From contig CAXXDN010000001.1 of NCBI GenBank assembly GCA_963667465.2, forward strand, positions 320,001-384,000: a stretch of DNA of 64,000 bases. Reading direction: 5' to 3'. The notes beneath the pieces are model-generated. The model was not told where the DNA came from. It worked only from the letters and a program-made list of their open reading frames with translations, and searched no databases. This DNA comes from Dehalococcoidia bacterium (GTDB lineage: Bacteria; Chloroflexota; Dehalococcoidia; UBA2979). Positions 3,447 to 37,817 of the stretch are shown piece by piece (the stretch's first letter is position 1; every line of letters begins with the position of its first letter). Made by a program: the position numbers and the translations under genes.

Positions 3447-3519
3447 CCGGCACTGAACTGGCCGCTCTGAACTGACCGGCACTGAACTGGCCGCTCTGAA
3501 CTGACCACGCTGAACTGAC
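3433..3519. repeat. Tandem repeat, 29-bp unit CCGCTCTGAACTGACCGGCACTGAACTGG (two perfect copies plus one degenerate; six CTGAACTG cores)
   Basis: Directly visible at 3433-3461, 3462-3490 and 3491-3519, between convergent genes. Confidence 0.9.
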
Positions 3520-3524
3520 TGCCG

Positions 3525-4733
3525 CTACGAGGCGAGCAGCAACGGGATGCGCAGCTCCTCCGGTCGCAGCCCGGAGTGGTGCGAGGCGTGGCGCAGCAGC
3601 TCGCGCGCCCCGTTCGCGGGGTGGTAGCCCAGCACCTGTGCGCCTCGGGAGATCGCGACGAAGTCGCCGAGGCGCTCGGCCGTGAGCGGGCTCAGCGGCT
3701 CCGGCCCGAACAACCGCAGCTCGTCCACCTCCTGCGTGGTCAGCAGCAGGAACGCCTCGCCGAAGCGCTCGCGGAAGCGAGCAGCGAAGGCCTCGTGGGC
3801 GCCGGGACGCACGTGGAAGTGCAGCACGCGCGAGTCGCCGGCGGGCTCGGCGGCGAGCAACTCGGGTATCCCGTCGTCCTCGCGAATCAGCAGCACCTCG
3901 TTCCCGGTGACGCCGAGGTGCCCGTGATCGGCGCTCAGCGCGACCACGGCCTGGCCACGCAGCTCCCGCGCGAGCAGGCCGAACAGCTGGTTGATGGCGT
4001 GCAGCGCCCGGGTCGCCTCGGCGCTCCACGGGCCGTGCTCGTGGGCGGCGTGGTCGAGGTGCGGGATGTAGAGGTAGACGAAGCTCGGCCCGTCGGCCCC
4101 GAGCACGGCCCCGATGGTCTGCTCCACGCCCTCGGCGAGCGTCTCGTACCCGATCGCCGGCTCGCCGCCGGTGCCGTAGCGCGAGTAGACACTGCCGGCG
4201 ATCGCCTGCGGCACGAGGACCAGCGTCCTGCGCGTCATCCTCGGCGTGAGCGCGGGCAGCGGGAACAGGTCCTCCGGCCGCACGCCGAGCTCGCCGAGCG
4301 AGCGGTCGTCGCGGCGGCGCACGTAGGGGAGGACGGTGGCCGGTCCGCCGATCGCCTCCACGTGCGTCCACCAACCGGTGACCGCATGCTGCGCCGGCCA
4401 CTCGCCGGTCAGCAGCGTGGTCAGGGCGACCACGGTCGAGGCGGGGAAGATCGCCCGCAACTCCATTGCGAGGTGCGCGCGGAGCACGTTCGCTCCGTCG
4501 CCGCCCTGCTCGATCATGTCGAGACCGAGGCCGTCGGCGAGCACGAACACGATGTGCTCGCGTTCCTCGAGGCGATCGGCGATGGCTTGCGCCTGCTCGC
4601 CCGGCGCGAGACCGCGGACGCCGCAGGCCGAGCCGATGGCGCGCGCAAGGTCGAGGAAGTTCGGAACATCCGCGTCGGGGCGAAGCAGCTCGCCTGCCTC
4701 GAACGCCGCGAGCAGTGCCTCGACATCGCTCAT
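3525..4733 (-). CDS. Alkaline phosphatase superfamily (type I phosphodiesterase/nucleotide pyrophosphatase) protein
   Basis: Metal-binding motifs LADGLG, FPASTVVALTTLLTG, LDHAAHEHG, SADHGH, HHSG; ATG 4733 (MSDVEALL) preferred over upstream starts. Confidence 0.88.
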   Translation of the reverse strand: MSDVEALLAAFEAGELLRPDADVPNFLDLARAIGSACGVRGLAPGEQAQAIADRLEEREHIVFVLADGLGLDMIEQGGDGANVLRAHLAMELRAIFPASTVVALTTLLTGEWPAQHAVTGWWTHVEAIGGPATVLPYVRRRDDRSLGELGVRPEDLFPLPALTPRMTRRTLVLVPQAIAGSVYSRYGTGGEPAIGYETLAEGVEQTIGAVLGADGPSFVYLYIPHLDHAAHEHGPWSAEATRALHAINQLFGLLARELRGQAVVALSADHGHLGVTGNEVLLIREDDGIPELLAAEPAGDSRVLHFHVRPGAHEAFAARFRERFGEAFLLLTTQEVDELRLFGPEPLSPLTAERLGDFVAISRGAQVLGYHPANGARELLRHASHHSGLRPEELRIPLLLAS

Positions 4734-8955: not shown

Positions 8956-9297
8956 GTGGGCACATACCGCCTGTACACAGGAGACGACGGCGAATCCCGC
9001 GTCGCGCCCATCGACCTGTCGGACACGCCCGACTGGAGGGCGGGTCTGGACGCCACGACCATCAGCTTCCGGGAGGCCCCTCCGGGGAGATTCGTGGACT
9101 GGCACCCGGCGCCCCGCCGGCAGTTCGTCATCATCCTCTCGGGGCAACTCGAGATCGGGCTGAGCGACGGGTCGAAGCACATCTTCGGTCCCGGCGACGC
9201 CCGCCTGGTCGAGGACACGACCGGCAAGGGCCACACCACCGCGGTGCACGGCGACGAGCCCTGCGTGACAGCCACCATCCCGCTCGCCAACCAGTAG
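8956..9297 (+). CDS. Cupin-domain protein
   Basis: RLYTGDDGES, DWHPAPRRQFVIILSG.LEIG..DG, GPGD..LVEDTTGKGH; GGAGGAGG RBS. Confidence 0.85.
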   Translation: MGTYRLYTGDDGESRVAPIDLSDTPDWRAGLDATTISFREAPPGRFVDWHPAPRRQFVIILSGQLEIGLSDGSKHIFGPGDARLVEDTTGKGHTTAVHGDEPCVTATIPLANQ

Positions 9298-9455
9298 CAT
9301 CGCCCCAGCCCCGGCGGGCCGGACAGCGTGCGCGATTCCGCCTCGAATCTACCTAAATCGCCGCCTCGATCCGGCAGGCTCGAGGTGGGCCGGTTGTCGC
9401 TTCGCGGGCGGTGGCGGAAGCTCGCGAGGGCGTCCAACCGGCGAGGGGGCCAGGC

Positions 9456-10487
9456 ATGCGCTATCGCACGATCGCGGGTACGGACATCTCCGTCTCGGAG
9501 CTCGGCTTCGGCGTCTGGACGGTCGCCGCCGGGTGGTGGGGCGACTACAGCGACGACGAGGCCGTGACGCTGCTGCGGCAGGGCCATGAGCGCGGCATCA
9601 ACTTCTTCGACACCGCCGATACCTACGGCAACGGGCGCGGCGAGACGATCCTGCAGCAGGCCTTCCCCGGCGCCGATCGAGACAAGATCGTGATCGCCAC
9701 CAAGTTTGGCTACGACTGGGAATCGCAGATCGGCAAGCGCCGCGAGGGCCACCAGGAGGCTCCGCACTGCTTCGAGCCGGACTTCCTGCAGCGCGCCCTC
9801 GACGGCTCGCTGCGCCGCCTCGGCACGGACCGCATCGACCTCTGGCAGCTGCACAACGTGCGCATGGAGCACCTGGAGCGCGACGACGTCTGGAGCTTCC
9901 TCGACCGCGTGCGGCGCGAGGGCAAGGTGCGCAGCGTCGGGGCCGCCCTCGGTCCGGCGATCGGCTGGCGCGAAGAGGGACTGTACGCCCTCGCCGAGCG
10001 GCAGGTCGAGGTCGTGCACATGATCTACAACGCGCTTGAGCTGGACCCCGGCCGAGAGCTGATCGCGGCGGCGCGCGCGGCCGGACGCTCGCTGATGGTG
10101 CGGGTGCCGCATTCCTCGGGGATGCTCGAGGGCAAGTACACGGTGGACACCGTCTTCGACGAGAACGACCACCGCCGCCACCGTCCCCGCGCCTGGCTGA
10201 TCAACGGCCTCAAGAAGATTGAGCAGCTCGATTTCCTGACCGAGACGACGGGCGGCATGCTCGGACAGGCGGCGCTGCGCTACATCCTCAAGGATCCGGA
10301 GATCGTCTGCACGCTGCCCAACATCTACGGCCTCGAGCAGATCGAGGAGTTCGCGGGGGCCGCAGACTGCGGCGACGTGACTCCCGAGGCCGCCGCACGC
10401 GTCGAGGCGCTGTACGAGTCCAACTACGGCCTGCCGCTCGAGCAGGAGGCCGCCGTCACGGCGGCGGCGGGACGGGGGTCGCGATGA
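9456..10487 (+). CDS. Aldo/keto reductase
   Basis: MRYR.I.GTD..VSELGFG, GINFFDTADTYG.G.GE, IATKFGY, SLRRLGTDRIDL.QLH. Confidence 0.93.
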   Translation: MRYRTIAGTDISVSELGFGVWTVAAGWWGDYSDDEAVTLLRQGHERGINFFDTADTYGNGRGETILQQAFPGADRDKIVIATKFGYDWESQIGKRREGHQEAPHCFEPDFLQRALDGSLRRLGTDRIDLWQLHNVRMEHLERDDVWSFLDRVRREGKVRSVGAALGPAIGWREEGLYALAERQVEVVHMIYNALELDPGRELIAAARAAGRSLMVRVPHSSGMLEGKYTVDTVFDENDHRRHRPRAWLINGLKKIEQLDFLTETTGGMLGQAALRYILKDPEIVCTLPNIYGLEQIEEFAGAADCGDVTPEAAARVEALYESNYGLPLEQEAAVTAAAGRGSR

Positions 10488-29881: not shown

Positions 29882-29899
29882 TGATGTAGGCTTACATCA
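29882..29899 (+). promoter_or_regulatory. Palindromic operator TGATGTA-ggct-TACATCA overlapping the -10 (TAGGCT) and start of the antitoxin gene
   Basis: Perfect 7-bp inverted repeat directly at the vapB start; typical TA autoregulation. Confidence 0.7.
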
Positions 29900-30150
29900 T
29901 GAGTCGCCGCACGCAGATCACGCTGACCGACGAGCAGTATGCGCGGCTGCGCGAGGAGTCCCGGCGCTCCGGCCTCGGCCTCGCGGAGCTGGTCCGCCGG
30001 GCGCTCGATCACCGCTACGGAGCGGCTCCCGGCACGGAGTTGCGGAGCGCCCTCGACGCGAGCTTCGCCTCTTGGGGGGACCGTGATTTCGATGGCGCGA
30101 GCTACGTCGAGAGGCTGCGCCACGGCATGTCTCGCCGGCTGGCGGACTGA
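29899..30150 (+). CDS. CopG/RHH-type antitoxin (VapB)
   Basis: RRTQITLTDEQY..L..ES...G...AELVRRAL; upstream of a PIN toxin. Confidence 0.88.
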   Translation: MSRRTQITLTDEQYARLREESRRSGLGLAELVRRALDHRYGAAPGTELRSALDASFASWGDRDFDGASYVERLRHGMSRRLAD

Positions 30151-30530
30151 TGGCGATCGTCGTCGACACCTCGGTGCTGATCGACCAACTGCGAGGCGAG
30201 GAAGCGGCTCGCGAGGCGCTTCGCGGCGCGACGGCCGCCGGCGAGCGGCTCGTCGCGTCCGTCCTCACCAAGGTCGAGGTGCTGGCCGGGATGCGGGCGC
30301 CGGAGGAGCGCGCCACGCGTCGCCTGCTCGACAGCCTCGACTGGATCGAGGTGGATGACGAGCTCGCCGAACGTGCCGGCATGCTGGCCAACCGCTATCT
30401 GCCGTCACACCCCGGTGTCGATCCGGTCGACTACGTGATTGCGGCAACGGCCGAACACCTCGACGCCCGGCTCTGGACCCGCAACGTCCGCCACTTCCCG
30501 ATGTTCCCGGAGCTCGAGCCCCCGTACTGA
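30150..30530 (+). CDS. vapC: VapC PIN-domain toxin
   Basis: [29 protein letters not shown]. Confidence 0.92.
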
Positions 30531-30606: not shown

Positions 30607-31674
30607 GTGGACGACGAGAAGCGCGGTCCGCTGGCTCGCACGCAGACCCCCGATGACATTTCGATCGAGCCCACGCTGCGCCCCCGGCGCCTCGAGGAGT
30701 ACTTCGGCCAGGACACGGTCAAGGTGTCGCTGCGGATCGCGATCGCCGCTGCGAAGGGGCGGGGCGAACCGCTCGACCACCTGCTGATCCACGGCCCGCC
30801 CGGCCTCGGCAAGACGACGCTCGCGATGATCCTCGCCTCCGAGATGGGCGTCTCGATCCGCGTCACCTCCGGGCCGGCAATCGAGCGCGCGGGCGATCTC
30901 GCCTCGGTGCTCACCAGCCTGCAGCCCGGCGACGTGCTGTTCATCGACGAGGTGCACCGGCTGCCGCGCGTGGTGGAGGAGATCCTCTACCCGGCGATGG
31001 AGGACTGGGCGCTCGACATCATCCTCGGCAGCGGGCCGAAGGCGCGCGATGTGCGGCTCACGCTCAACCGCTTCACGCTGATCGCCGCCACCACGCGCTA
31101 CGCGCTGGTCTCGCAGCCGCTGCGCGACCGCTTCGGGGCGAGCTACCGGCTGGAGTTCTACGACGAGGCAGCGCTGAGCGAGATCGTGCGCCGCTCGGCG
31201 GGTGTGCTCGGCTGCGCCATCGATGCCGACGGAGTGACGGCGATCGCCAGCCGGGCGCGCGGCACCGCGCGCGTCGCGAACCGGCTGCTGCGCCGCGTGC
31301 GCGACTACGCCGAGGTGGAGGCGGACGGTGTGATCACCGAGCCGGTGGCCGCGCTCGCCCTCGCGCAGCTCGGCATCGACGAGCTGGGCCTCGACGCGAT
31401 GGACCGCGAGTTGCTGCGGGTGCTCGTCGAGCGCTTCGGCGGCGGCCCGGTGGGCCTCGAGACGCTGGCCGCGGCGGTCTCCGAGGAGGCCGACACGATC
31501 ATGGACGTGTACGAGCCGTACCTGCTGAAGATCGGCTACCTGCAGCGCACCCCGCGCGGCCGGGTCGCCTCGCGGCTGGCCTACGACCGCCTCGGCCTGG
31601 AGCCGCCCCCCGCGCTGCTCGCCGCCGTCGCGCAGCAGCCCGCACTGTTCGGCGAGGACGGCGCGGGCGGCTGA
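30607..31674 (+). CDS. ruvB: Holliday junction branch migration helicase
   Basis: [58 protein letters not shown]; AGGAGG RBS before GTG 30607. Confidence 0.97.
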
Positions 31675-31681
31675 CGCAGCC

Positions 31682-31894
31682 TCAACGCACCCCAAGCACC
31701 ATCGCGTCGACCGGGTTGCCGGCGTCGAAGACGGCGACGGCGAGGCGGCGGCCGGCCGTGAGCTGCGCGGCGGAGATGGCGCGCGAGACCGGCACGGCCG
31801 TGACCACCGAGGAGAGCGATCCGGCGAAGCGGACGGTCGCGGTCCAGGCCCCGCTGTCGAACGAGACCAGGGTGGCGCGCTCCAGCATCGTCAC
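31682..31894 (-). CDS. 70-aa OB-fold-like protein resembling the N-terminal domain of phage baseplate spikes (gpV/gp5-like)
   Basis: ATLVSFD...WTATVRF.......AVPV.......L.AGRRLAVAVFD.GNP.DAMVLG pattern; GTGA overlap with the hub gene and GGAGG RBS. Confidence 0.55.
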   Translation of the reverse strand: MTMLERATLVSFDSGAWTATVRFAGSLSSVVTAVPVSRAISAAQLTAGRRLAVAVFDAGNPVDAMVLGVR

Positions 31895-33861
31895 ACCTCC
31901 CCGAGCGTCAGGGTCTGCTCGTAGCGTGGGCGCGCACCGCGGGCGAAGCGCAGCCGCAGGCCCGCGACACGGAACGGCGCGGCAGCGAGGCCTGCCGCCG
32001 CGTCGCTGACCTCGATGATGTCGCCGGGCTCCTGCGCGACGTTGGGCTGCACGAGCAGCTCGCCGCGTTCGACGGCCAGACGCGACTGGCGCAGCAGCAT
32101 GTCCGCTCGCGCGTCGACACGGTCCTGCGCGCCGAGATTCTCGTCGACGGCGATGACCGCGCCCGCACCCTCGGCGATCGCGGCTTCGTCGGTCGCCTCG
32201 GCGAAGACGCCGCTGCCGAAGACCCGCGCCCAGCCGGCGGCCGGGCGGCCCGCCTCGATCGCGTGCGCGAGGATGGCGTGGTCCGGGCCGTAGGCGTAGG
32301 CGGCTGCGTCGCTCGCGGACGGCTCGGACAGCACCAGCAGGCGGCCGTCACTGCGCAGCCGGTCCGGAAGCGCCCGCAGCAGCCGCCGCATGGCGGTCGC
32401 GCCACGTTCGCCGGCGCGCACGGTGAACGCCGGACGCAGCAAGCCGGATTCGCCGCTCGCTCCGCGCATGGTCAGCCGCAGCCCGGCGCGGCGAGCGATC
32501 GCGGCGAGGATCTCGATCGCGCTCTGCTGCCCCGCCTCCCACACGAGCTGTTCCGGGGCAATCCATCCCTCGAGCAGGCCGAGCCCATCGACGGCGTCCA
32601 CCTCGACCGTCGCAGCGCCGCCACTCCGCCGCCGCCGGAGCGCAGCGATCCAGAAGCGCGGCCCCTCGGATGTCTCGATGCCGGCAGCGCTGCGGTAACC
32701 GGGCTGCACCCACAGCTCGCCGCCGGCCGTGAGGGCGATCGGGGCGCGGTCGCCGGCGTAGCGCCCGTCCTCGTTACGCAGTGTCAGCCGCAGCCGTCCC
32801 TGCTCGCGCTGATCGATCACTGCTTCCAGTACGTCGTCCGTCAGTTCGTGCTCAGCGTGCGCGATGGGGGCGCGCCAGACCGCGTTCGGCGAGGCGAGCC
32901 AGGCGGCGTCGGGGGACGCCGCCGCGCCAAGCCCGTGCGGCGAGGCGTGGACGAAGGGGCGGGGATCGCGCCATTCGCCGTCGCCGTGGAGACTGCCCGC
33001 GAGACCCGCCGCGATCTGCACCCGGTCGTAGGCGCCCGCACCGCGGTAGGACTCGACGAACACGGACTGCGGCGCATCGGCGCGCATCAGGCCGCTCGCG
33101 AGGTAGCTGATGTCCGACCCGGCGGCGGCCGAGGCAACCACGGCGAGCGGCAGCCAGTGGCCCGGCGGCTGCCCGCCGCCCGAGCCGAGCACCGTTGACC
33201 AGACGCCTGCTCCTCCGTCCGCGTCGGTCCCCGACACCAGCACGTTGCAGTCCACCTCGAAGTACGCGGCAAGGCCGTTGACCGTCGCGAGCGAGCGCGA
33301 CCAGGCAACGGGCGCGGCCCACGCGCCGAGAGCCTGGCGGCGGACCGCGTAGACGGTCCCGCCCGAGGCGTAGAGCACGCTCGCGGACCCGTCCCCCTCG
33401 ATCGCAACCGCCAGCGCCGTGACGGACGAGCCGGCGGTCGCCACGGTTCGCGAAGCGCCGAAGCTGGCGCCCGAGTCCGCGCTCTCGCGCACCTCGACGC
33501 GTACGCCGTCCGTGCGGACGCTGGCGAGGATGGCGCGGGCGCCAGAGGCCGCCAGCCCGAGGCGTGGCGCGACCGCAACGGTCGCGACGGCGGTCCAGTC
33601 TCCGAAGCCGGCGCCGGACGCTGGGGCGGCCACCCGTTGGCGGCTGAGCGCGCCCGTTGCGGGATCGATCCGTGCGCGCAGCAAGGCGCCGTCGCCCGCC
33701 ACGGCGAGGGCGCACGGGCCGTTGCCCCTGGCGCCATCGTGGCTGCGCTGCCAGCGCAGCCGGATCGAGCCGGCGTCGCGGTCCAGGAGCCGCACGCGCA
33801 GGTGGGGCTCGGCGCTGGCCGACTGCTGGGCAGCGCGGAGGGTAGGGCTGAGCGCTCGCAT
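31891..33861 (-). CDS. Putative phage tail-tip protein: beta-rich N-terminal half plus gp27/Tal-like baseplate hub C-terminal half (656 aa)
   Basis: C-half has LTDDVL..., LRLTLRNEDGRY, VEVDAVDGLGLL, EILAAIARRAG, PN...EPGDIIEV.D.......FRV......YEQTLTL, typical of hub proteins; ATG 33861 follows the adaptor stop. Confidence 0.6.
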   Translation of the reverse strand: MRALSPTLRAAQQSASAEPHLRVRLLDRDAGSIRLRWQRSHDGARGNGPCALAVAGDGALLRARIDPATGALSRQRVAAPASGAGFGDWTAVATVAVAPRLGLAASGARAILASVRTDGVRVEVRESADSGASFGASRTVATAGSSVTALAVAIEGDGSASVLYASGGTVYAVRRQALGAWAAPVAWSRSLATVNGLAAYFEVDCNVLVSGTDADGGAGVWSTVLGSGGGQPPGHWLPLAVVASAAAGSDISYLASGLMRADAPQSVFVESYRGAGAYDRVQIAAGLAGSLHGDGEWRDPRPFVHASPHGLGAAASPDAAWLASPNAVWRAPIAHAEHELTDDVLEAVIDQREQGRLRLTLRNEDGRYAGDRAPIALTAGGELWVQPGYRSAAGIETSEGPRFWIAALRRRRSGGAATVEVDAVDGLGLLEGWIAPEQLVWEAGQQSAIEILAAIARRAGLRLTMRGASGESGLLRPAFTVRAGERGATAMRRLLRALPDRLRSDGRLLVLSEPSASDAAAYAYGPDHAILAHAIEAGRPAAGWARVFGSGVFAEATDEAAIAEGAGAVIAVDENLGAQDRVDARADMLLRQSRLAVERGELLVQPNVAQEPGDIIEVSDAAAGLAAAPFRVAGLRLRFARGARPRYEQTLTLGEV

Positions 33862-33872
33862 ACGGCCTCGCG

Positions 33873-34478
33873 CTACCCGCCGTGCGGCAGGGAGAGCACG
33901 CCCGAGCGGGCGCGGCCGGCGCGGCCGTGTCTGGCCAGCGCGCGAGCGAACTCGGCGAGCCGCTCCTGCGCCCAGACGTGGTAGTGCCGCCAGGTGTCCG
34001 CGCCGCCCACGTTCACGCGGTTGACCGCGTACGAGGCCCACTCGATTGCCGCGTAGGCGCCCGCCCCGGTCGCCACGAGGTCAGCGAGCGCAGGCGGCAG
34101 CGTGCTGCCGCCTGCGTCGAGCGTGTGCAGCTTCGAGTAGTGGACCGTGACCGCCTCGTCCCCGTCCGGCGGCGCGCCGAGCTGCAACGTCAGCGTGTCA
34201 CCCCAGAGTGAGAACGGCGGCCGCGAGGGCGGGTACAGGCCGACCGGGTACTCGACGGCCTCGATACTGACACGGTCGGCCAGGGCCGCGACGCTGAGGT
34301 CGCGGCTGCCGGCGACCGTCCGCAGCGCCGCGCTCGTCTCGAGCGGCGCGGCGAGCGAGAGCTCGCGGACGGCGCGCTCGACGTGCCGGTCGAGCGCCTC
34401 GTCGGGCCAGCGCTGGTTGGCCGGATCAGTGTCGCGGAGGTCGCGCCGCAGCCGCGCGCGCATCGACGGCAGGTCCAT
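33873..34478 (-). CDS. Putative phage head-tail adaptor/connector protein
   Basis: N-terminal M....MR..LR.DL.D......RW.D..LD..V..A helix pattern, central beta domain, C-terminal LP....DLV..GA helix; directly downstream of the capsid gene; GAGGAAG RBS. Confidence 0.6.
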   Translation of the reverse strand: MDLPSMRARLRRDLRDTDPANQRWPDEALDRHVERAVRELSLAAPLETSAALRTVAGSRDLSVAALADRVSIEAVEYPVGLYPPSRPPFSLWGDTLTLQLGAPPDGDEAVTVHYSKLHTLDAGGSTLPPALADLVATGAGAYAAIEWASYAVNRVNVGGADTWRHYHVWAQERLAEFARALARHGRAGRARSGVLSLPHGG

Positions 34479-34532
34479 CTCTTCCTCGATTCGGGCTGGG
34501 GAGCCTGGAGGGTGGCGAAAGGGGTTGGGGAG

Positions 34533-34571
34533 GAGGGCGGCCGCCCGGCGCCGGCCGGACGGGCCACCCTC
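34533..34571 (-). terminator. GC-rich hairpin between the capsid and adaptor genes (attenuator or mRNA stabiliser)
   Basis: Minus strand GAGGGTGGCCCGTCCGG...CCGGGCGGCCGCCCTC imperfect stem. Confidence 0.45.
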
Positions 34572-34587
34572 GCACGCGGCTGGTCGC

Positions 34588-35478
34588 CTAGGGGCGAACG
34601 CCGCTGAGCTTCGCGAGCTTGAGCTCGTTGAAGAGCGCGACCGAGACGTACCACTTGACCCGCACGCGAGTCGCGTCCTTCGTCTCCAGCGCGCCGACCC
34701 GCTCGATGGTCAGCCCGCCGGGCGCGGTCAGCCCGGCCACGGCGCCCTCGCCGAACTGCAGGGCGTAGACCGCCGAAGTGTCCTTGGACGTGCCGGTGGT
34801 GTCGTCGTCGGCGATGTGGTCGTTCACGCCGATCGGGATGCCGTCGTAGAAGGCGACCATGCGGCCGAACTCGTCGCGGTCGTGCTCGACGACGCCGCCG
34901 CCCGCCGCACGCGCGAGCTTGTTGAGCGCCCGCCGCGAGCGGCGCGACATCAGCAGCAGCTCCGGCTTGCCGCCACGCACCGTGTCGATCAACTCGTCGA
35001 GCTTGTCGAGGGTGAGCGTGGCCCCGTTCGCGCCCATCGAGACCGTCTGCGCCGCCGGGCACAGCTCGTCGAGGCCATCGAACGACTTCGCATCGCTGCT
35101 CGTGTCGCCGTTGATGAACGTGTCGTCGAACTTCTGCTGGACGGACTTCGCCTTGAGCGCCACGACTGCCGCCTCGATGTCCTGCACGTTGCTGCGGGTG
35201 CGGGCGATGTAGTTGTCGATGTCTGCGTCGCCGCCGAGGATCGTCAGCGCGGTCGTGATCTGCTTGAACGTCGGCGTGTCCTCGGACCAGGTGTCCCCCA
35301 CCGAGTAGAAGCCGGCCGAGGCCGAGAGCTTCTCACGGTTGTAGGTGAGCCCGTTGCCGACGATCTCGATGAACGGCAGCCGCTGCAGGATCGGGCTGTC
35401 GTAGATCACCGTCTCGATCACGCCCTCGAGCAGGACGTCGTTCGAGAGCTTCGCGCCTTCGGTCAGGGTCAGTGCCAT
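34588..35478 (-). CDS. Phage major capsid protein (HK97-type fold)
   Basis: MALTL.E..KLS...L..GVIE....SPIL..LPF..I.GN...YNRE, ILGGDADID, FINGD......FDGL, TLDKLDELID, GIPI, RVKWY; GGAAGG RBS; host-like codon usage. Confidence 0.9.
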   Translation of the reverse strand: MALTLTEGAKLSNDVLLEGVIETVIYDSPILQRLPFIEIVGNGLTYNREKLSASAGFYSVGDTWSEDTPTFKQITTALTILGGDADIDNYIARTRSNVQDIEAAVVALKAKSVQQKFDDTFINGDTSSDAKSFDGLDELCPAAQTVSMGANGATLTLDKLDELIDTVRGGKPELLLMSRRSRRALNKLARAAGGGVVEHDRDEFGRMVAFYDGIPIGVNDHIADDDTTGTSKDTSAVYALQFGEGAVAGLTAPGGLTIERVGALETKDATRVRVKWYVSVALFNELKLAKLSGVRP

Positions 35479-35594
35479 GGTGTCGTGTTCCGTTCCTTCC
35501 GGCGCGCGCCGCGCGCCTCGCTCGTCATTGCCGCGGGCACGCTAGTGACGTGCGCGCGCTGCTCCGAGGGTCATGTGGCAGCACTCGCCGCCGG

Positions 35595-36083
35595 CTACGT
35601 CCGGCTCCGCTGCTCGAGGCCGTAGGCGATCTTCTCGGCCGTGGTCATCGCCTCCGTGCGCGGTCCGCGCCGCTCCGGCGCACCGGCCGGGAAGCCACGC
35701 GCCGCCTCGTCCTCCGACTCGCGGGCGATCCGCTCCCGGATCTCCGCGACCGTGCGGCGCGCTGCCTCGACCGAGGCGTCGACGGCCTCGGTGTCGTCGC
35801 CCTCGACCAGCTCGGGCGGCAGCGCCGGCTCGGCCGTCAGCAGCGCTGCGCGGTAGCGCGCGACGGCGGCCCGGCGCGCGGCACGCTCGGCGTCGAGGGC
35901 GTCCCGGGCCTCCTGCAGCTCGCCGCGCAGCGTGATCAGACCGTCGTGTTCGGCCTCGGCGACGGCGGCGAGCTCCGCCGCAGCCTCGTCGGGCAGGTCA
36001 TCCCCGGACGGTTCGGGACCAGCGATCGGCTCGCTCGAGGCCGCGTTCCCGGCTTCCTGCTCCCTCGCGTCGTGTTCGGTCAT
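35595..36083 (-). CDS. Putative capsid scaffolding protein (162 aa)
   Basis: Acidic disordered N-terminus, coiled coil, C-terminal PAGAPER..MTTAEKIAYGL amphipathic helix; directly upstream of the capsid gene; GAAGGAG RBS before ATG 36083. Confidence 0.65.
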   Translation of the reverse strand: MTEHDAREQEAGNAASSEPIAGPEPSGDDLPDEAAAELAAVAEAEHDGLITLRGELQEARDALDAERAARRAAVARYRAALLTAEPALPPELVEGDDTEAVDASVEAARRTVAEIRERIARESEDEAARGFPAGAPERRGPRTEAMTTAEKIAYGLEQRSRT

Positions 36084-36199
36084 GCGTCTCTCCTTCGGGC
36101 AATCCGGTGTCCCCGGATCAGCGTTGTCGAAGAGCACGCTGCGCGTTGCGCGCGCGAACTCCGAGCGCCGGGTGGCGCTCGGCGCTGTACGATCCGGCC

Positions 36200-36963: not shown

Positions 36964-37278
36964 TTACGAGGCGGCAGCGGCCTCCTCGGCCTCTTCGAGC
37001 TCTGCCGCCGGGTCGTGGACGTAGCGCAGATAGCGGTCGTCGCGCTCGCCGAGGAGTACGAGCATGCCCTCGGCCTCCTGCTCGCGTACCCAGCTGGAGA
37101 GCCTGGCGCTGTGGCCGAAGATCAGGAACGTCTCGCCTGTGAAGGAGAAGCGGCGGCCGTTGACGGTGACGTAGTAGGGCGGCGGACCGTCGTCCTCATT
37201 GAAGTTCAGGACGAACACGTCGGCCTCTCCCTCGGAGAGCACCGTCAGGTCATCGAAACCGACTTCGACCTCGCTCAC
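36964..37278 (-). CDS. Hypothetical acidic protein (104 aa)
   Basis: GTG 37278 with GGGAGG RBS; reads VSEVEVGFDDLTVLSEGEADVFVLNF...; protein-like composition. Confidence 0.7.
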   Translation of the reverse strand: MSEVEVGFDDLTVLSEGEADVFVLNFNEDDGPPPYYVTVNGRRFSFTGETFLIFGHSARLSSWVREQEAEGMLVLLGERDDRYLRYVHDPAAELEEAEEAAAAS

Positions 37279-37337
37279 CTTCGCCTCCCTCGGCCGCCCG
37301 CGCACGGGGCATCGCGCCAGATGATACGGGCGTCCCC

Positions 37338-37817
37338 CTACGAGGGGCCAGCGTCTCCACCGTCTGCAGCGGGCGTCGCGCGCAGGTCCGGCGCGGCGAG
37401 CAACATCAGCAGCGTCACGATCACCGCCGAACCCACGCACCAGACGCAGATCGCCTCGATCTCGAACAGCTCGAGCCAGGTCAGGTAGGCGGAGTAGAGC
37501 GTGCCGCCGAGGGCGAGCGCGAACGTGAGCCCGGCCAGCGCCTGCGGCGGCTCCTCGCCTCGCAACGCCGCCCACCAGCGCCGCGCGGCGATCAGCGCGA
37601 GCAGCGCGAGGTACATGCCAAGACCGAGCACGGCTATCGGCACCCCGGCAATCTCAGCGAACTCGGAACCCTGGACAGTCTGGCAGTCGCCGACACCGGA
37701 GCACGCGGCCTCTTGCCCCTCGTCGAGGGCGACCCAGCTGAGGTAGCCCGCGACCACAACGCCGGCGATCGCGAGCGCGAGCAGCAGGTCGTGGCGGCGG
37801 GCGAGCAGGAAGGCCAC
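37338..37817 (-). CDS. Vitamin K epoxide reductase (VKOR) family disulfide-bond formation protein
   Basis: C.GVGDC..V..S.F..I.GVP..VLG, YS.YL...E...I.AICVWC (CxxC). Confidence 0.92.
   Translation of the reverse strand: MAFLLARRHDLLLALAIAGVVVAGYLSWVALDEGQEAACSGVGDCQTVQGSEFAEIAGVPIAVLGLGMYLALLALIAARRWWAALRGEEPPQALAGLTFALALGGTLYSAYLTWLELFEIEAICVWCVGSAVIVTLLMLLAAPDLRATPAADGGDAGPS

Follow-up and report, generated by a model that had tools for sequence, protein, structure and literature searches.

A capsid-gene cassette beside ruvB as the candidate structural half of a split, gene-transfer-agent-like particle system in Dehalococcoidia

A stretch of 64,000 nucleotides from a Dehalococcoidia bacterium (GenBank assembly GCA_963667465.2, contig CAXXDN010000001.1, positions 320,001 to 384,000 of the forward strand; hereafter the window) carries five phage-type genes between ruvB and a rimI-like gene, which raises the question of what a small set of virion genes does between two host genes. 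The initial annotation of this cassette proposed a host-retained particle-forming system, and this proposal is supported by packaging genes, synteny, selection, gene trees and the distance to known phages. Here, we established the identities of the genes, their split over two loci, vertical inheritance at the family level, purifying selection, the presence of one copy per genome and the wide spread of the system in the class. We consider it probable (about 0.6) that the cassette represents one half, the structural one, of an ancient domesticated particle system (viriform) that resembles a gene transfer agent (GTA) and is split into two loci in this genus, and we regard the system as a strong candidate for a new GTA.

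Capsid, tail and packaging genes

The cassette consists of five genes on the minus strand, all of which were recovered in the list of open reading frames (ORFs) at the positions first assigned to them, and all of which are uninterrupted, in agreement with the claim that frameshifts are lacking. They code for a scaffold-like protein (35595-36083; 162 amino acids (aa) from an ATG, with the longest ORF extending to 36137, where an upstream GTG provides an alternative start for a protein of 180 aa), a major capsid protein (MCP; 34588-35478; 296 aa), an SU10-type adaptor (33873-34478; 201 aa), a tail hub (31891-33861; 656 aa from that start, with the longest ORF extending to 34041) and an OB-fold protein (31682-31894; 70 aa), the gene for which shares 4 bases with the hub gene. 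On one side, a gap of 7 bp, as expected, separates the cassette from the ruvB ORF, which ends at 31674; on the other side, the divergent gene for a GNAT acetyltransferase (Pfam Acetyltransf_1; rimI-like) starts at 36197, and this gap measures 113 bp instead of the 116 bp originally given. As also proposed, the GC content is host-like, with bins from 31 to 36 kb at 0.71-0.76 inside a window range of 0.66-0.77, and no exact att-like flanking repeat longer than 15 nt was found. A GGAG-type ribosome-binding site lies 5' of the scaffold gene. A consensus scan found no promoter-like or terminator-like site, and the 64-kb window contains neither a tRNA nor an Rfam family.

The MCP belongs to the HK97-fold family. 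It matches the PHROG major head protein family phrog_212 with E=7e-71 and Pfam Phage_capsid with 36.4 bits (cut-off 24.2), and is above or at the cut-off for Pfam GP7 and SU10_MCP as well. It has no delta domain, no protease gene lies nearby, and it is present in a single copy in its own genome, where we detected one Phage_capsid match and one Terminase_6C match in total. The adaptor matches Pfam SU10_adaptor (PF24175; E=3e-9, 38 bits, cut-off 27) over nearly the full length, i.e. residues 1-187 align with positions 1-182 of 194, and the mean column identity in an alignment of 20 homologues (A5) is 65%. Thus, the identities initially given to both proteins hold. In profile searches against solved structures, matches were weak for the adaptor (7wmp_m, 'Adaptor protein gp12', E=0.14) and the MCP (8cjz_Y, E=0.0029), and the scaffold alignment (A4, 15 homologues) returned nothing meaningful.

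The scaffold-like protein is acidic, rich in Ala and Glu, helical and of coiled-coil composition; its conserved C-terminal half contains the motifs RYR..LL..P.LP and GAP.R...EKI. In the contiguous clusters of relatives, the corresponding gene lies between those for the portal and the MCP. Position and composition agree with the label that the protein had received, while the match to the PHROG head scaffolding protein family is weak (E=0.054); based on these three lines of evidence, we refer to it as a putative, scaffold-like protein. No significant Pfam or PHROG family match was found for the scaffold, hub and OB proteins. An encapsulin nanocompartment was considered and rejected: the SrpI-like match reaches 14.7 bits against a cut-off of 22.8 (E=0.016), homologues of portal and terminase exist, and the neighbours in the cassette are an adaptor and a hub and not cargo.

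The AlphaFold2 model of the 656-aa protein, built with 13 homologues, has a mean predicted local distance difference test score (pLDDT) of 91.9 and a predicted template modelling (pTM) score of 0.88. The C-terminal part (residues about 310-656) has the fold of hubs of the gp27, Mu gp44 and VgrG-base type. In Foldseek searches of the PDB, it matched a chain of an extracellular contractile injection system (7aef_q, 3e-15) and Mu gp44 (1wru, 1.5e-14, template modelling (TM) score to the target 0.70), with further matches to the 43-kDa tail protein of MuSo2 (3cdd), 3d37, 6u5h_A, T4 gp27 (1k28_D), the P1 and 80alpha baseplates, VgrG and the pyocin R2 hub. Overall, E-values for this half ranged from 1e-15 to 1e-9 and TM-scores to hub-only targets from 0.6 to 0.72. 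The viral models in BFVD that match the hub are named 'Tail protein' and 'Phage protein D', and in a protein-atlas look-up the hub was nearest to Chloroflexota clusters without names, followed by the siphovirus Gp37-like hub family. The N-terminal part (residues about 1-300) is all-beta and propeller-like; sialidases and propeller lectins match it in Foldseek at lower rank and with high rmsd, and it contains a near-invariant S-x-D-x-G-A-x-F motif, which we take to be similar to the Asp-box of sialidases. The protein had been described as tail-tip-like, and this is confirmed by the hub fold, seen both in a confident model and by Foldseek. The model shows a beta-propeller that is fused to a tail hub of the gp27/Mu-gp44 type.

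The model of the OB protein (pLDDT 90.6) is an OB barrel with five strands and a short helix. The Foldseek matches were weak (E 5e-3 to 6e-2) and were a mixture of generic OB folds (IF1, proteasomal ATPases) and spike N-terminal domains, the spike-type targets being P2 gpV, a Mu baseplate chain (9ki1_V), T4 gp5, a P1 baseplate chain, VgrG and the pyocin spike. In relatives, the OB gene is always located 3' of the hub gene, to which it is translationally coupled by the 4-base overlap. At these E-values, the likeness to spikes implied by the initial label 'spike-like' is weak. We consider the 70-aa protein a plausible, weakly supported candidate for a cap or spike base under the hub.

The initial annotation had suggested that packaging genes might be encoded elsewhere in the genome. 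In distant relatives, a protein of 442-464 aa adjoins the scaffold gene upstream, and in one such locus (L031) proteins of 459 aa and 123 aa are encoded further upstream. A tblastn search with the portal, large terminase subunit (TerL), small terminase subunit (TerS) and helix-turn-helix (HTH) proteins of L031 identified homologues with 26-51% identity in the genome that contains the window (G000), at G000:C1:8681-12795. Thus, TerS-like, TerL, HTH and portal genes are indeed present, 342 kb from the cassette. The complete packaging locus extends over C1:8155-12810 with all genes on one strand; among the conserved host genes that flank it are those for an M48 peptidase and a sigma/anti-sigma pair of the extracytoplasmic function (ECF) type. 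The locus starts with an ORF of about 99 aa with three transmembrane segments (3-TM; G000:C1:8155-8454) and a 57-aa ORF (G000:C1:8451-8624), which are coupled via overlapping stop and start codons to the TerS-like gene; both ORFs are kept throughout the family and also occur in G046, and the 3-TM membrane protein could be a holin-like release factor. The TerS-like protein (116 aa) has no family match in its own copy, and the L031 homologue matches the PHROG terminase small subunit (6.6e-9). TerL matches Pfam Terminase_6C (3.6e-7) and the PHROG terminase large subunit (2.4e-11), the Cys-rich HTH protein matches the PHROG late transcriptional activator (9e-7), and the portal is of the SPP1 type (Pfam SPP1_portal 4.9e-13; PHROG portal 5e-21). 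TerL retains the blocks RQGGKN and VDEAQ together with acidic motifs, the same in kind as in a distant relative; we take these to be the Walker-A-like, the Walker-B/catalytic and the nuclease motifs, respectively. The packaging genes were detected only with proteins of Dehalococcoidia relatives that have contiguous clusters: in the own genome, the Pfam profiles Phage_portal (PF04860) and Terminase_6N (PF03237) gave nothing useful, and when the portal, terminase and head-tail proteins of the phages PaMx11 and Effie were used as tblastn queries, no match was better than E=0.005.

Two further features were observed at the packaging locus. GC-rich repeats lie 5' of the operon (G000:C1:7820-8100) and fill the 0.8-kb gap between the TerS-like and TerL genes (8971-9756); one frame reads P-A-L-S-R-x-G-R-G, and similar short repeats are frequent in L261, a locus from another class. 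Upstream (G000:C1:264-7818), a transposase-looking ORF of 407 aa (3510-4733) is flanked by an inverted gene duplication (572/664 aa and 174/172 aa).

In total, the full gene set comprises the 3-TM, 57-aa, TerS-like, TerL, HTH, SPP1-type portal, scaffold, MCP, adaptor, hub and OB genes. Relatives with a contiguous layout have these genes in this order in about 12 kb between host genes, with variable genes between MCP and adaptor that code for 127- or 154-aa proteins, a Laminin_G_3 protein or a fibre-like protein. An 89-aa membrane protein is sometimes encoded between adaptor and hub, and in G057 and G059 the OB gene is followed by a gene for an Amidase_2 lysin, in G057 also by one for a small membrane protein. 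As a separate observation, a transposase-looking ORF of 336 aa lies between MCP and adaptor in G006 (L036, 9482-10492); four copies with 62% identity are present on contig C2 of the own genome.

Distribution, descent and selection

All 18 other species of the genus have the cassette, and it occupies the same ruvB/rimI site in them. In 17 of these, it was found by the MCP search; in G005, the contig breaks off shortly past the adaptor, and the hub and OB genes are present. G025 is another case of this kind at a contig end. The initial annotation had named patchy presence among strains, or relatives with a full prophage between ruvB and rimI, as observations that would speak against host retention; the site is occupied by the cassette in 18/18 congeners, and no relative examined has a full prophage there. 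Among 19 fetched loci of relatives, MCP, adaptor and hub have the same order on one strand in 16, and ruvB and/or rimI flank the cassette in 10. An intact or recent prophage was rejected as an explanation because there are no att repeats, no integrase on C1 and no recognised lysis gene, and because the cassette is present in all 18 congeners. The own genome encodes four tyrosine recombinases, all on contig C2 and none on C1.

In a sample of 401 genomes of the class, the MCP was detected at E<=1e-30 in 228 (205 of the 372 high-quality genomes) and in 127 of 208 genera; one of the 228 carriers (G239) is marked as unpublished. Families f6 (21/23), f16 (31/34) and f21 (10/10) are nearly or completely filled. 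Nearly all of the 228 genomes have a single match and a few have two. Among the genomes of 61 relatives, the MCP was found in 39, the portal in 46 and TerL in 46. The link of such capsid genes to Dehalococcoidia that the initial annotation had drawn was correct: in a collection with one genome per species, at least 569 of 588 matched stretches encode a relative of the MCP, and the nearest public records are from Dehalococcoidia, Chloroflexi/Chloroflexota and Tepidiformaceae. The identity of the MCP across families is 54-77%. With respect to copy number, a further cassette with a further ruvB is present in G011 on a contig of 28.9 kb (C4, L040), in addition to the main copy on C1 (L039); the MCP and RuvB encoded on C4 group with those of G015 and not with the main G011 copy, and the contig is probably from another species in the bin.

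In a search of 301 genomes, 41 gave a match; 20 of these are from other Chloroflexota classes and encode MCP relatives, which are single-copy and 51-55% identical, e.g. in 4/4 genomes of genus g307. In five of these loci (L261-L265), neither a hub nor an OB gene was detected by tblastn, and the genes are arranged in a different order; in one, the ORF list contains amidase-like and adaptor-like genes 3' of the MCP gene. Based on the lack of hub and OB genes and the different order, we did not count these loci as the same system. They may represent a separate domestication or prophages.

The split into two loci is inherited. Within the own genus, nine genomes have portal and MCP on the same contig at a distance of 303-784 kb, and in G013 this distance is 2.0 Mb. 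A separation of only about 10 kb, with ruvB in the gap, was seen in G020 and G035. For genus g24 of family f6, the portal was found in 21/22 and the MCP in 21/21 genomes; in 15 genomes, both are on one contig at a distance of 43-114 kb. The splits in the own genus and in g24, stable and inherited as they are, are difficult to square with a mobile element. In G056, several TerL-like copies (49-50% identity; C1:434145-435503, 437983-438933) were noted, one of which is 2.5 kb from ruvB; MCP and portal of this genome are at 1.01-1.03 Mb, and the TerL on the ruvB side may be a remnant of that position or belong to another element.

Maximum-likelihood trees of MCP and RuvB (34 rows) have 13 of 31 bipartitions in common, compared with a mean of 0.2 and a maximum of 4 in 1000 trials with relabelled trees. 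Similarly, the patristic distances of the two proteins are correlated (Spearman rho 0.75), a value that none of 2000 permutations reached. All common splits are within the own family or separate the own family from the rest. The congruence that was to be expected of a host-retained system is thus found within the family, and we conclude that descent is vertical at the level of the own family.

We calculated the ratio of nonsynonymous to synonymous substitution rates (dN/dS) by the NG86 method against four congeners. For the cassette, dN/dS was 0.06-0.16 (MCP), 0.18-0.31 (hub), 0.27-0.30 (adaptor), 0.24-0.43 (scaffold) and 0.32-0.68 (OB protein, 69 codons). Values for flanking host genes were 0.04-0.10 (ruvB), 0.08-0.14 (ClpB), 0.15-0.24 (DsbA-like) and 0.28-0.38 (rimI-like), with dS of cassette and flanking genes in a similar range. 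At the packaging locus, dN/dS was 0.06-0.17 (portal), 0.04-0.08 (TerS-like) and 0.17-0.26 (TerL); for the HTH protein, it was 0.23-0.35 against G001, G010 and G004 and 0.41 against G009. Relaxed selection, which had been named as a sign against a host-retained system, was thus not observed, and we conclude that both loci are under purifying selection comparable to that on flanking host genes.

These values bear on the explanation that the cassette is a functionless, decaying remnant of a cryptic prophage that by chance was not deleted. Loss of the element from many genera and scattered damage in relatives would fit such a remnant: the MCP is degraded in G029 and present only as remnants in G039, the portal is frameshifted in G034, TerL is frameshifted in G042, and TerL contains stop codons in G046, G048 and G044. 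However, all five cassette genes and all four packaging genes are intact in this genome and in most congeners, the dN/dS values are well below 1 and equal those of host genes, and the MCP is still conserved at the above level across families. We therefore regard a functionless remnant as very improbable.

The nearest deposited phages are far removed from the system. The 290 deposited phage records that match the MCP all have less than 60% identity, the best being about 43% (capsids of PaMx11/Effie-type siphoviruses), and these nearest phages are siphoviruses with tube and tape-measure genes. For adaptor and hub, tblastn found no match in 50,697 phage records. A close homologue in a complete phage, the remaining finding that had been named as contrary to host retention, is thus not present among these records: the best MCP is about 43% identical and no homologue of adaptor or hub is detectable. 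In IMG/VR, at least 534 contigs encode the MCP; the best 80 are 4-13.7 kb long, plus one of 27 kb, those examined have the same gene order, and none of the 80 is a full phage genome.

Two neighbouring gene pairs in the window deserve mention. An RHH antitoxin (Pfam RHH_1) and a 126-aa PIN-like protein are encoded by an overlapping, VapBC-like pair 5' of ruvB (29899-30530, plus strand), which is kept in G001 and G011 (83-97% identity) and was not found in the loci of G009 and G010. On the other side, a 203-aa ORF without a Pfam match (36964-37575, minus strand) overlaps the 5' end of an ORF for a 159-aa membrane protein (37338-37817, minus strand) by about 240 bases; by tblastn, both ORFs are conserved in G001 and G011.

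Losses, deep history and rival explanations

Several observations weigh against a domesticated, GTA-like system. First, the element went undetected in 173 of the 401 class genomes, including all genomes of families f23 (0/34), f25 (0/11) and f29 (0/10), and it is completely absent from many genera; scattered decay also includes G047. Because the MCP was not found even in 13 of 36 genomes of the own family, the element is dispensable and often lost. Second, no lysin or recognised holin was found in the own genome. Third, tail tube, tape measure, terminator and distal tail protein were not found in the own genome or the contiguous clusters of relatives; in the own genome, the searches for the families PhageMin_Tail (tape measure) and Amidase_2 were negative. 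The capacity of a tail made of adaptor, hub and OB protein to deliver DNA is accordingly putative. Fourth, among 11 genomes of other families, MCP and RuvB distances are not correlated (rho -0.19), with RuvB being star-like among these genomes (52-75% identity, little usable signal) and aberrant in G057. Moreover, the chromosomal site differs between families: ruvB adjoins the OB gene in the own family and in G046 and G055 from other families, and does not in eight other families. Given that there is no MCP-RuvB correlation above the family and that the site varies, an old horizontal spread is possible.

These last observations would also fit a minimal element that is still mobile, i.e. a satellite of the capsid-forming-island type or a tiny temperate phage, which depends on a helper or the host and was immobilised in some lineages. 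Such an element would account for the compact contiguous cluster of about 12 kb in many lineages, the contigs in the viral collection, the variable accessory genes between MCP and adaptor, the Amidase_2 lysin in G057 and G059, the differing sites and incongruent deep trees, and the two MCP matches in a few genomes. By contrast, there is no integrase or replication gene at either locus, nor was one seen by ORF lists and tblastn in the contiguous clusters of relatives, in which not every ORF was searched for families; att repeats are lacking as well. Nearly all of the 228 genomes have one copy, the location is fixed and the phylogeny host-congruent within the family, a system with two independent stable splits cannot move as a unit, and the own genome has no signature of a candidate helper prophage. 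In total, we consider a still-mobile element distinctly unlikely.

Finally, packaging genes have been lost where the cassette was not. Three of the 18 congeners have a broken packaging locus: in G014 and G017, the portal is missing and TerL is truncated, with a stop codon in G017, and in G009, TerS is missing and TerL is without its first 217 residues. In G014 and G017, all five cassette genes are intact, and between these two genomes dN/dS of the cassette is 0.17 (MCP) to 0.45 (scaffold). The remnants of TerL in G014 and G017 have a dN/dS of about 0.2 and different breakpoints. Because the remnants have not drifted and the breakpoints differ, the losses of packaging look recent and separate. 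Retention of the cassette after loss of packaging fits a recent loss, and it also fits a function that is independent of packaging.

The latter would be expected if the cassette had a function outside DNA packaging and transfer, as a compartment, a bacteriocin-like or glycan-degrading particle or a defence decoy, and if the packaging genes were a separate, more dispensable relic. In addition to the intact cassettes of G014 and G017, the physical uncoupling of the two halves in two genera and the sialidase-like propeller on the hub are in favour of this explanation. However, the SrpI-like encapsulin match below the cut-off is explained by the common HK97 fold alone; adaptor, hub and OB cap are parts that bind at a portal vertex and would be pointless on a sealed compartment; where portal, TerS and TerL are kept, purifying selection acts on them as strongly as on the MCP; dN/dS of the truncated TerL indicates that the losses are recent; and no gene for a cargo enzyme is linked to the cassette. 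The presence of portal, terminase, adaptor and hub thus makes a compartment less plausible, and we regard a function outside packaging and transfer as unlikely.

Relation to known systems and a possible mechanism

As described in two reports, GTAs are phage-derived head and tail genes that have become chromosomally fixed, are passed on together with the host, are maintained by purifying selection, lack integrase and replication genes, have parts scattered over several loci and have been lost in many lineages (PMC9662315, PMC10883770). The Dehalococcoidia system cannot propagate itself, with loci 342 kb apart, no att repeats and recombinases on another contig. With RcGTA of Rhodobacter capsulatus (Alphaproteobacteria), it has in common that it is chromosomally fixed, host-inherited, under selection, scattered, without integrase and replication genes, and often lost. 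Unlike RcGTA, it is from an independent lineage, the Chloroflexota, it is split between portal and scaffold, its tail part comprises adaptor, hub and OB protein only, and it is known from its genes alone. The tube, tape measure and distal tail protein of an RcGTA-like cluster were not found. We rejected the reading as an RcGTA homologue on gene content, i.e. the lack of tube, tape measure, terminator and distal tail protein, and not by direct sequence comparison. To our knowledge, only a few gene transfer agents have been proven, and these belong to a small number of lineages.

PBSX of Bacillus subtilis is a fixed defective prophage that is contiguous and myovirus-like, has a contractile tail, forms a killer particle and has late genes that depend on a sigma-like factor. 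The Dehalococcoidia system is likewise fixed and non-propagating and has a link to a sigma factor, here an ECF pair in the gene neighbourhood in four genera, but it has no sheath or tube. Capsid-forming phage-inducible chromosomal islands (cf-PICIs) have an integrase, regulators and replication genes, excise, move and borrow tails from helpers. The system described here is similar in being a small element with its own terminase, portal, capsid and head-tail connector and without a complete virion; it differs in having its own hub, split loci and a host-congruent phylogeny, and no mobility genes were found. A capsid-forming PICI or other phage satellite was rejected because neither locus contains an integrase, a regulator or a replication module and because there is no helper signature.

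With respect to the tail, the models resemble gp27-gp5, Mu gp44-gp45 and VgrG complexes in the C-terminal hub fold and in the following OB-fold gene, the product of which would correspond to the N-terminal domain of a spike. In contrast to these complexes, the OB protein has only 70 aa and is without a beta-helical needle or lysozyme, an additional propeller is present on the hub, and there is no baseplate, tube or sheath around the hub. The adaptor family match above the cut-off is shared with SU10-type podoviruses, but the nozzle, needle and fibre genes of that phage type are lacking. Full-text literature searches, which did not extend to subscription journals and supplements, returned no description of this gene set, and the passages of the geNomad preprint that were consulted contain no mention of Chloroflexota.

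Regulation of the two loci may be linked to the ECF pair. The genes for the ECF sigma factor (Sigma70_r2, r4_2, ECF) and its anti-sigma factor are three genes from the portal in the own genus (G000:C1:14788-16379 in L043), and the same pair is directly upstream of scaffold and MCP in G020, G034 and one further genus (L024 10057-11570; L025 5927-7417; L052 8026-9539, the last from the further genus). On the basis of this neighbourhood to the packaging or capsid locus in four genera, the pair is possibly a dedicated regulator. A protein of the late-activator HTH type is encoded in the packaging operon itself. A GGAGTT-N-CGTGC block 5' of the scaffold gene is conserved in the genus and has 30 matches genome-wide; as a promoter motif shared by the two loci it was rejected, having no match upstream of the packaging operon.

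From the genes alone, we infer how a particle might be assembled, what its tail and cargo might be and how release and transfer might proceed. Scaffold and MCP would build a procapsid on the portal without the need for a protease, the TerS/TerL motor would fill the procapsid with DNA, and the adaptor would close the portal. A hub trimer capped by the 70-aa OB protein would then form a very short tail without a tube, and the propellers of the hub may bind or cut glycans on the surface of target cells. Because the system has no integrase and no replication genes and cannot exit as one unit, the most likely cargo would be DNA of the host that, as in a GTA, is passed to related cells.

A more far-reaching version of this interpretation is that the system is an independently domesticated GTA of Dehalococcoidia, perhaps also of further Chloroflexota, which forms a new viriform family with a minimal tube-less tail, has been kept in single copy through much of the class radiation, was split at least twice and is a main route of gene exchange; this version we put forward tentatively, as a possibility that we would not expect to hold in all its parts.

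Each independent GTA shows how a virus becomes an organ of its host, and the signature of domestication is unusually clear in this case, with one copy, a fixed site, host-like selection, two stable splits and presence in more than half of 401 genomes of the class. The system explains the hundreds of short Dehalococcoidia contigs that virus-detection tools flag as viral, and its tail is possibly a new minimal design, with a hub on an adaptor and no tube. The Dehalococcoidia include organohalide-respiring and other widespread uncultured bacteria, and the two loci provide a testable candidate for a route of DNA exchange among them. If the more far-reaching version is true, the system would be a main gene-exchange route in a group for which the searched literature describes no such agent.

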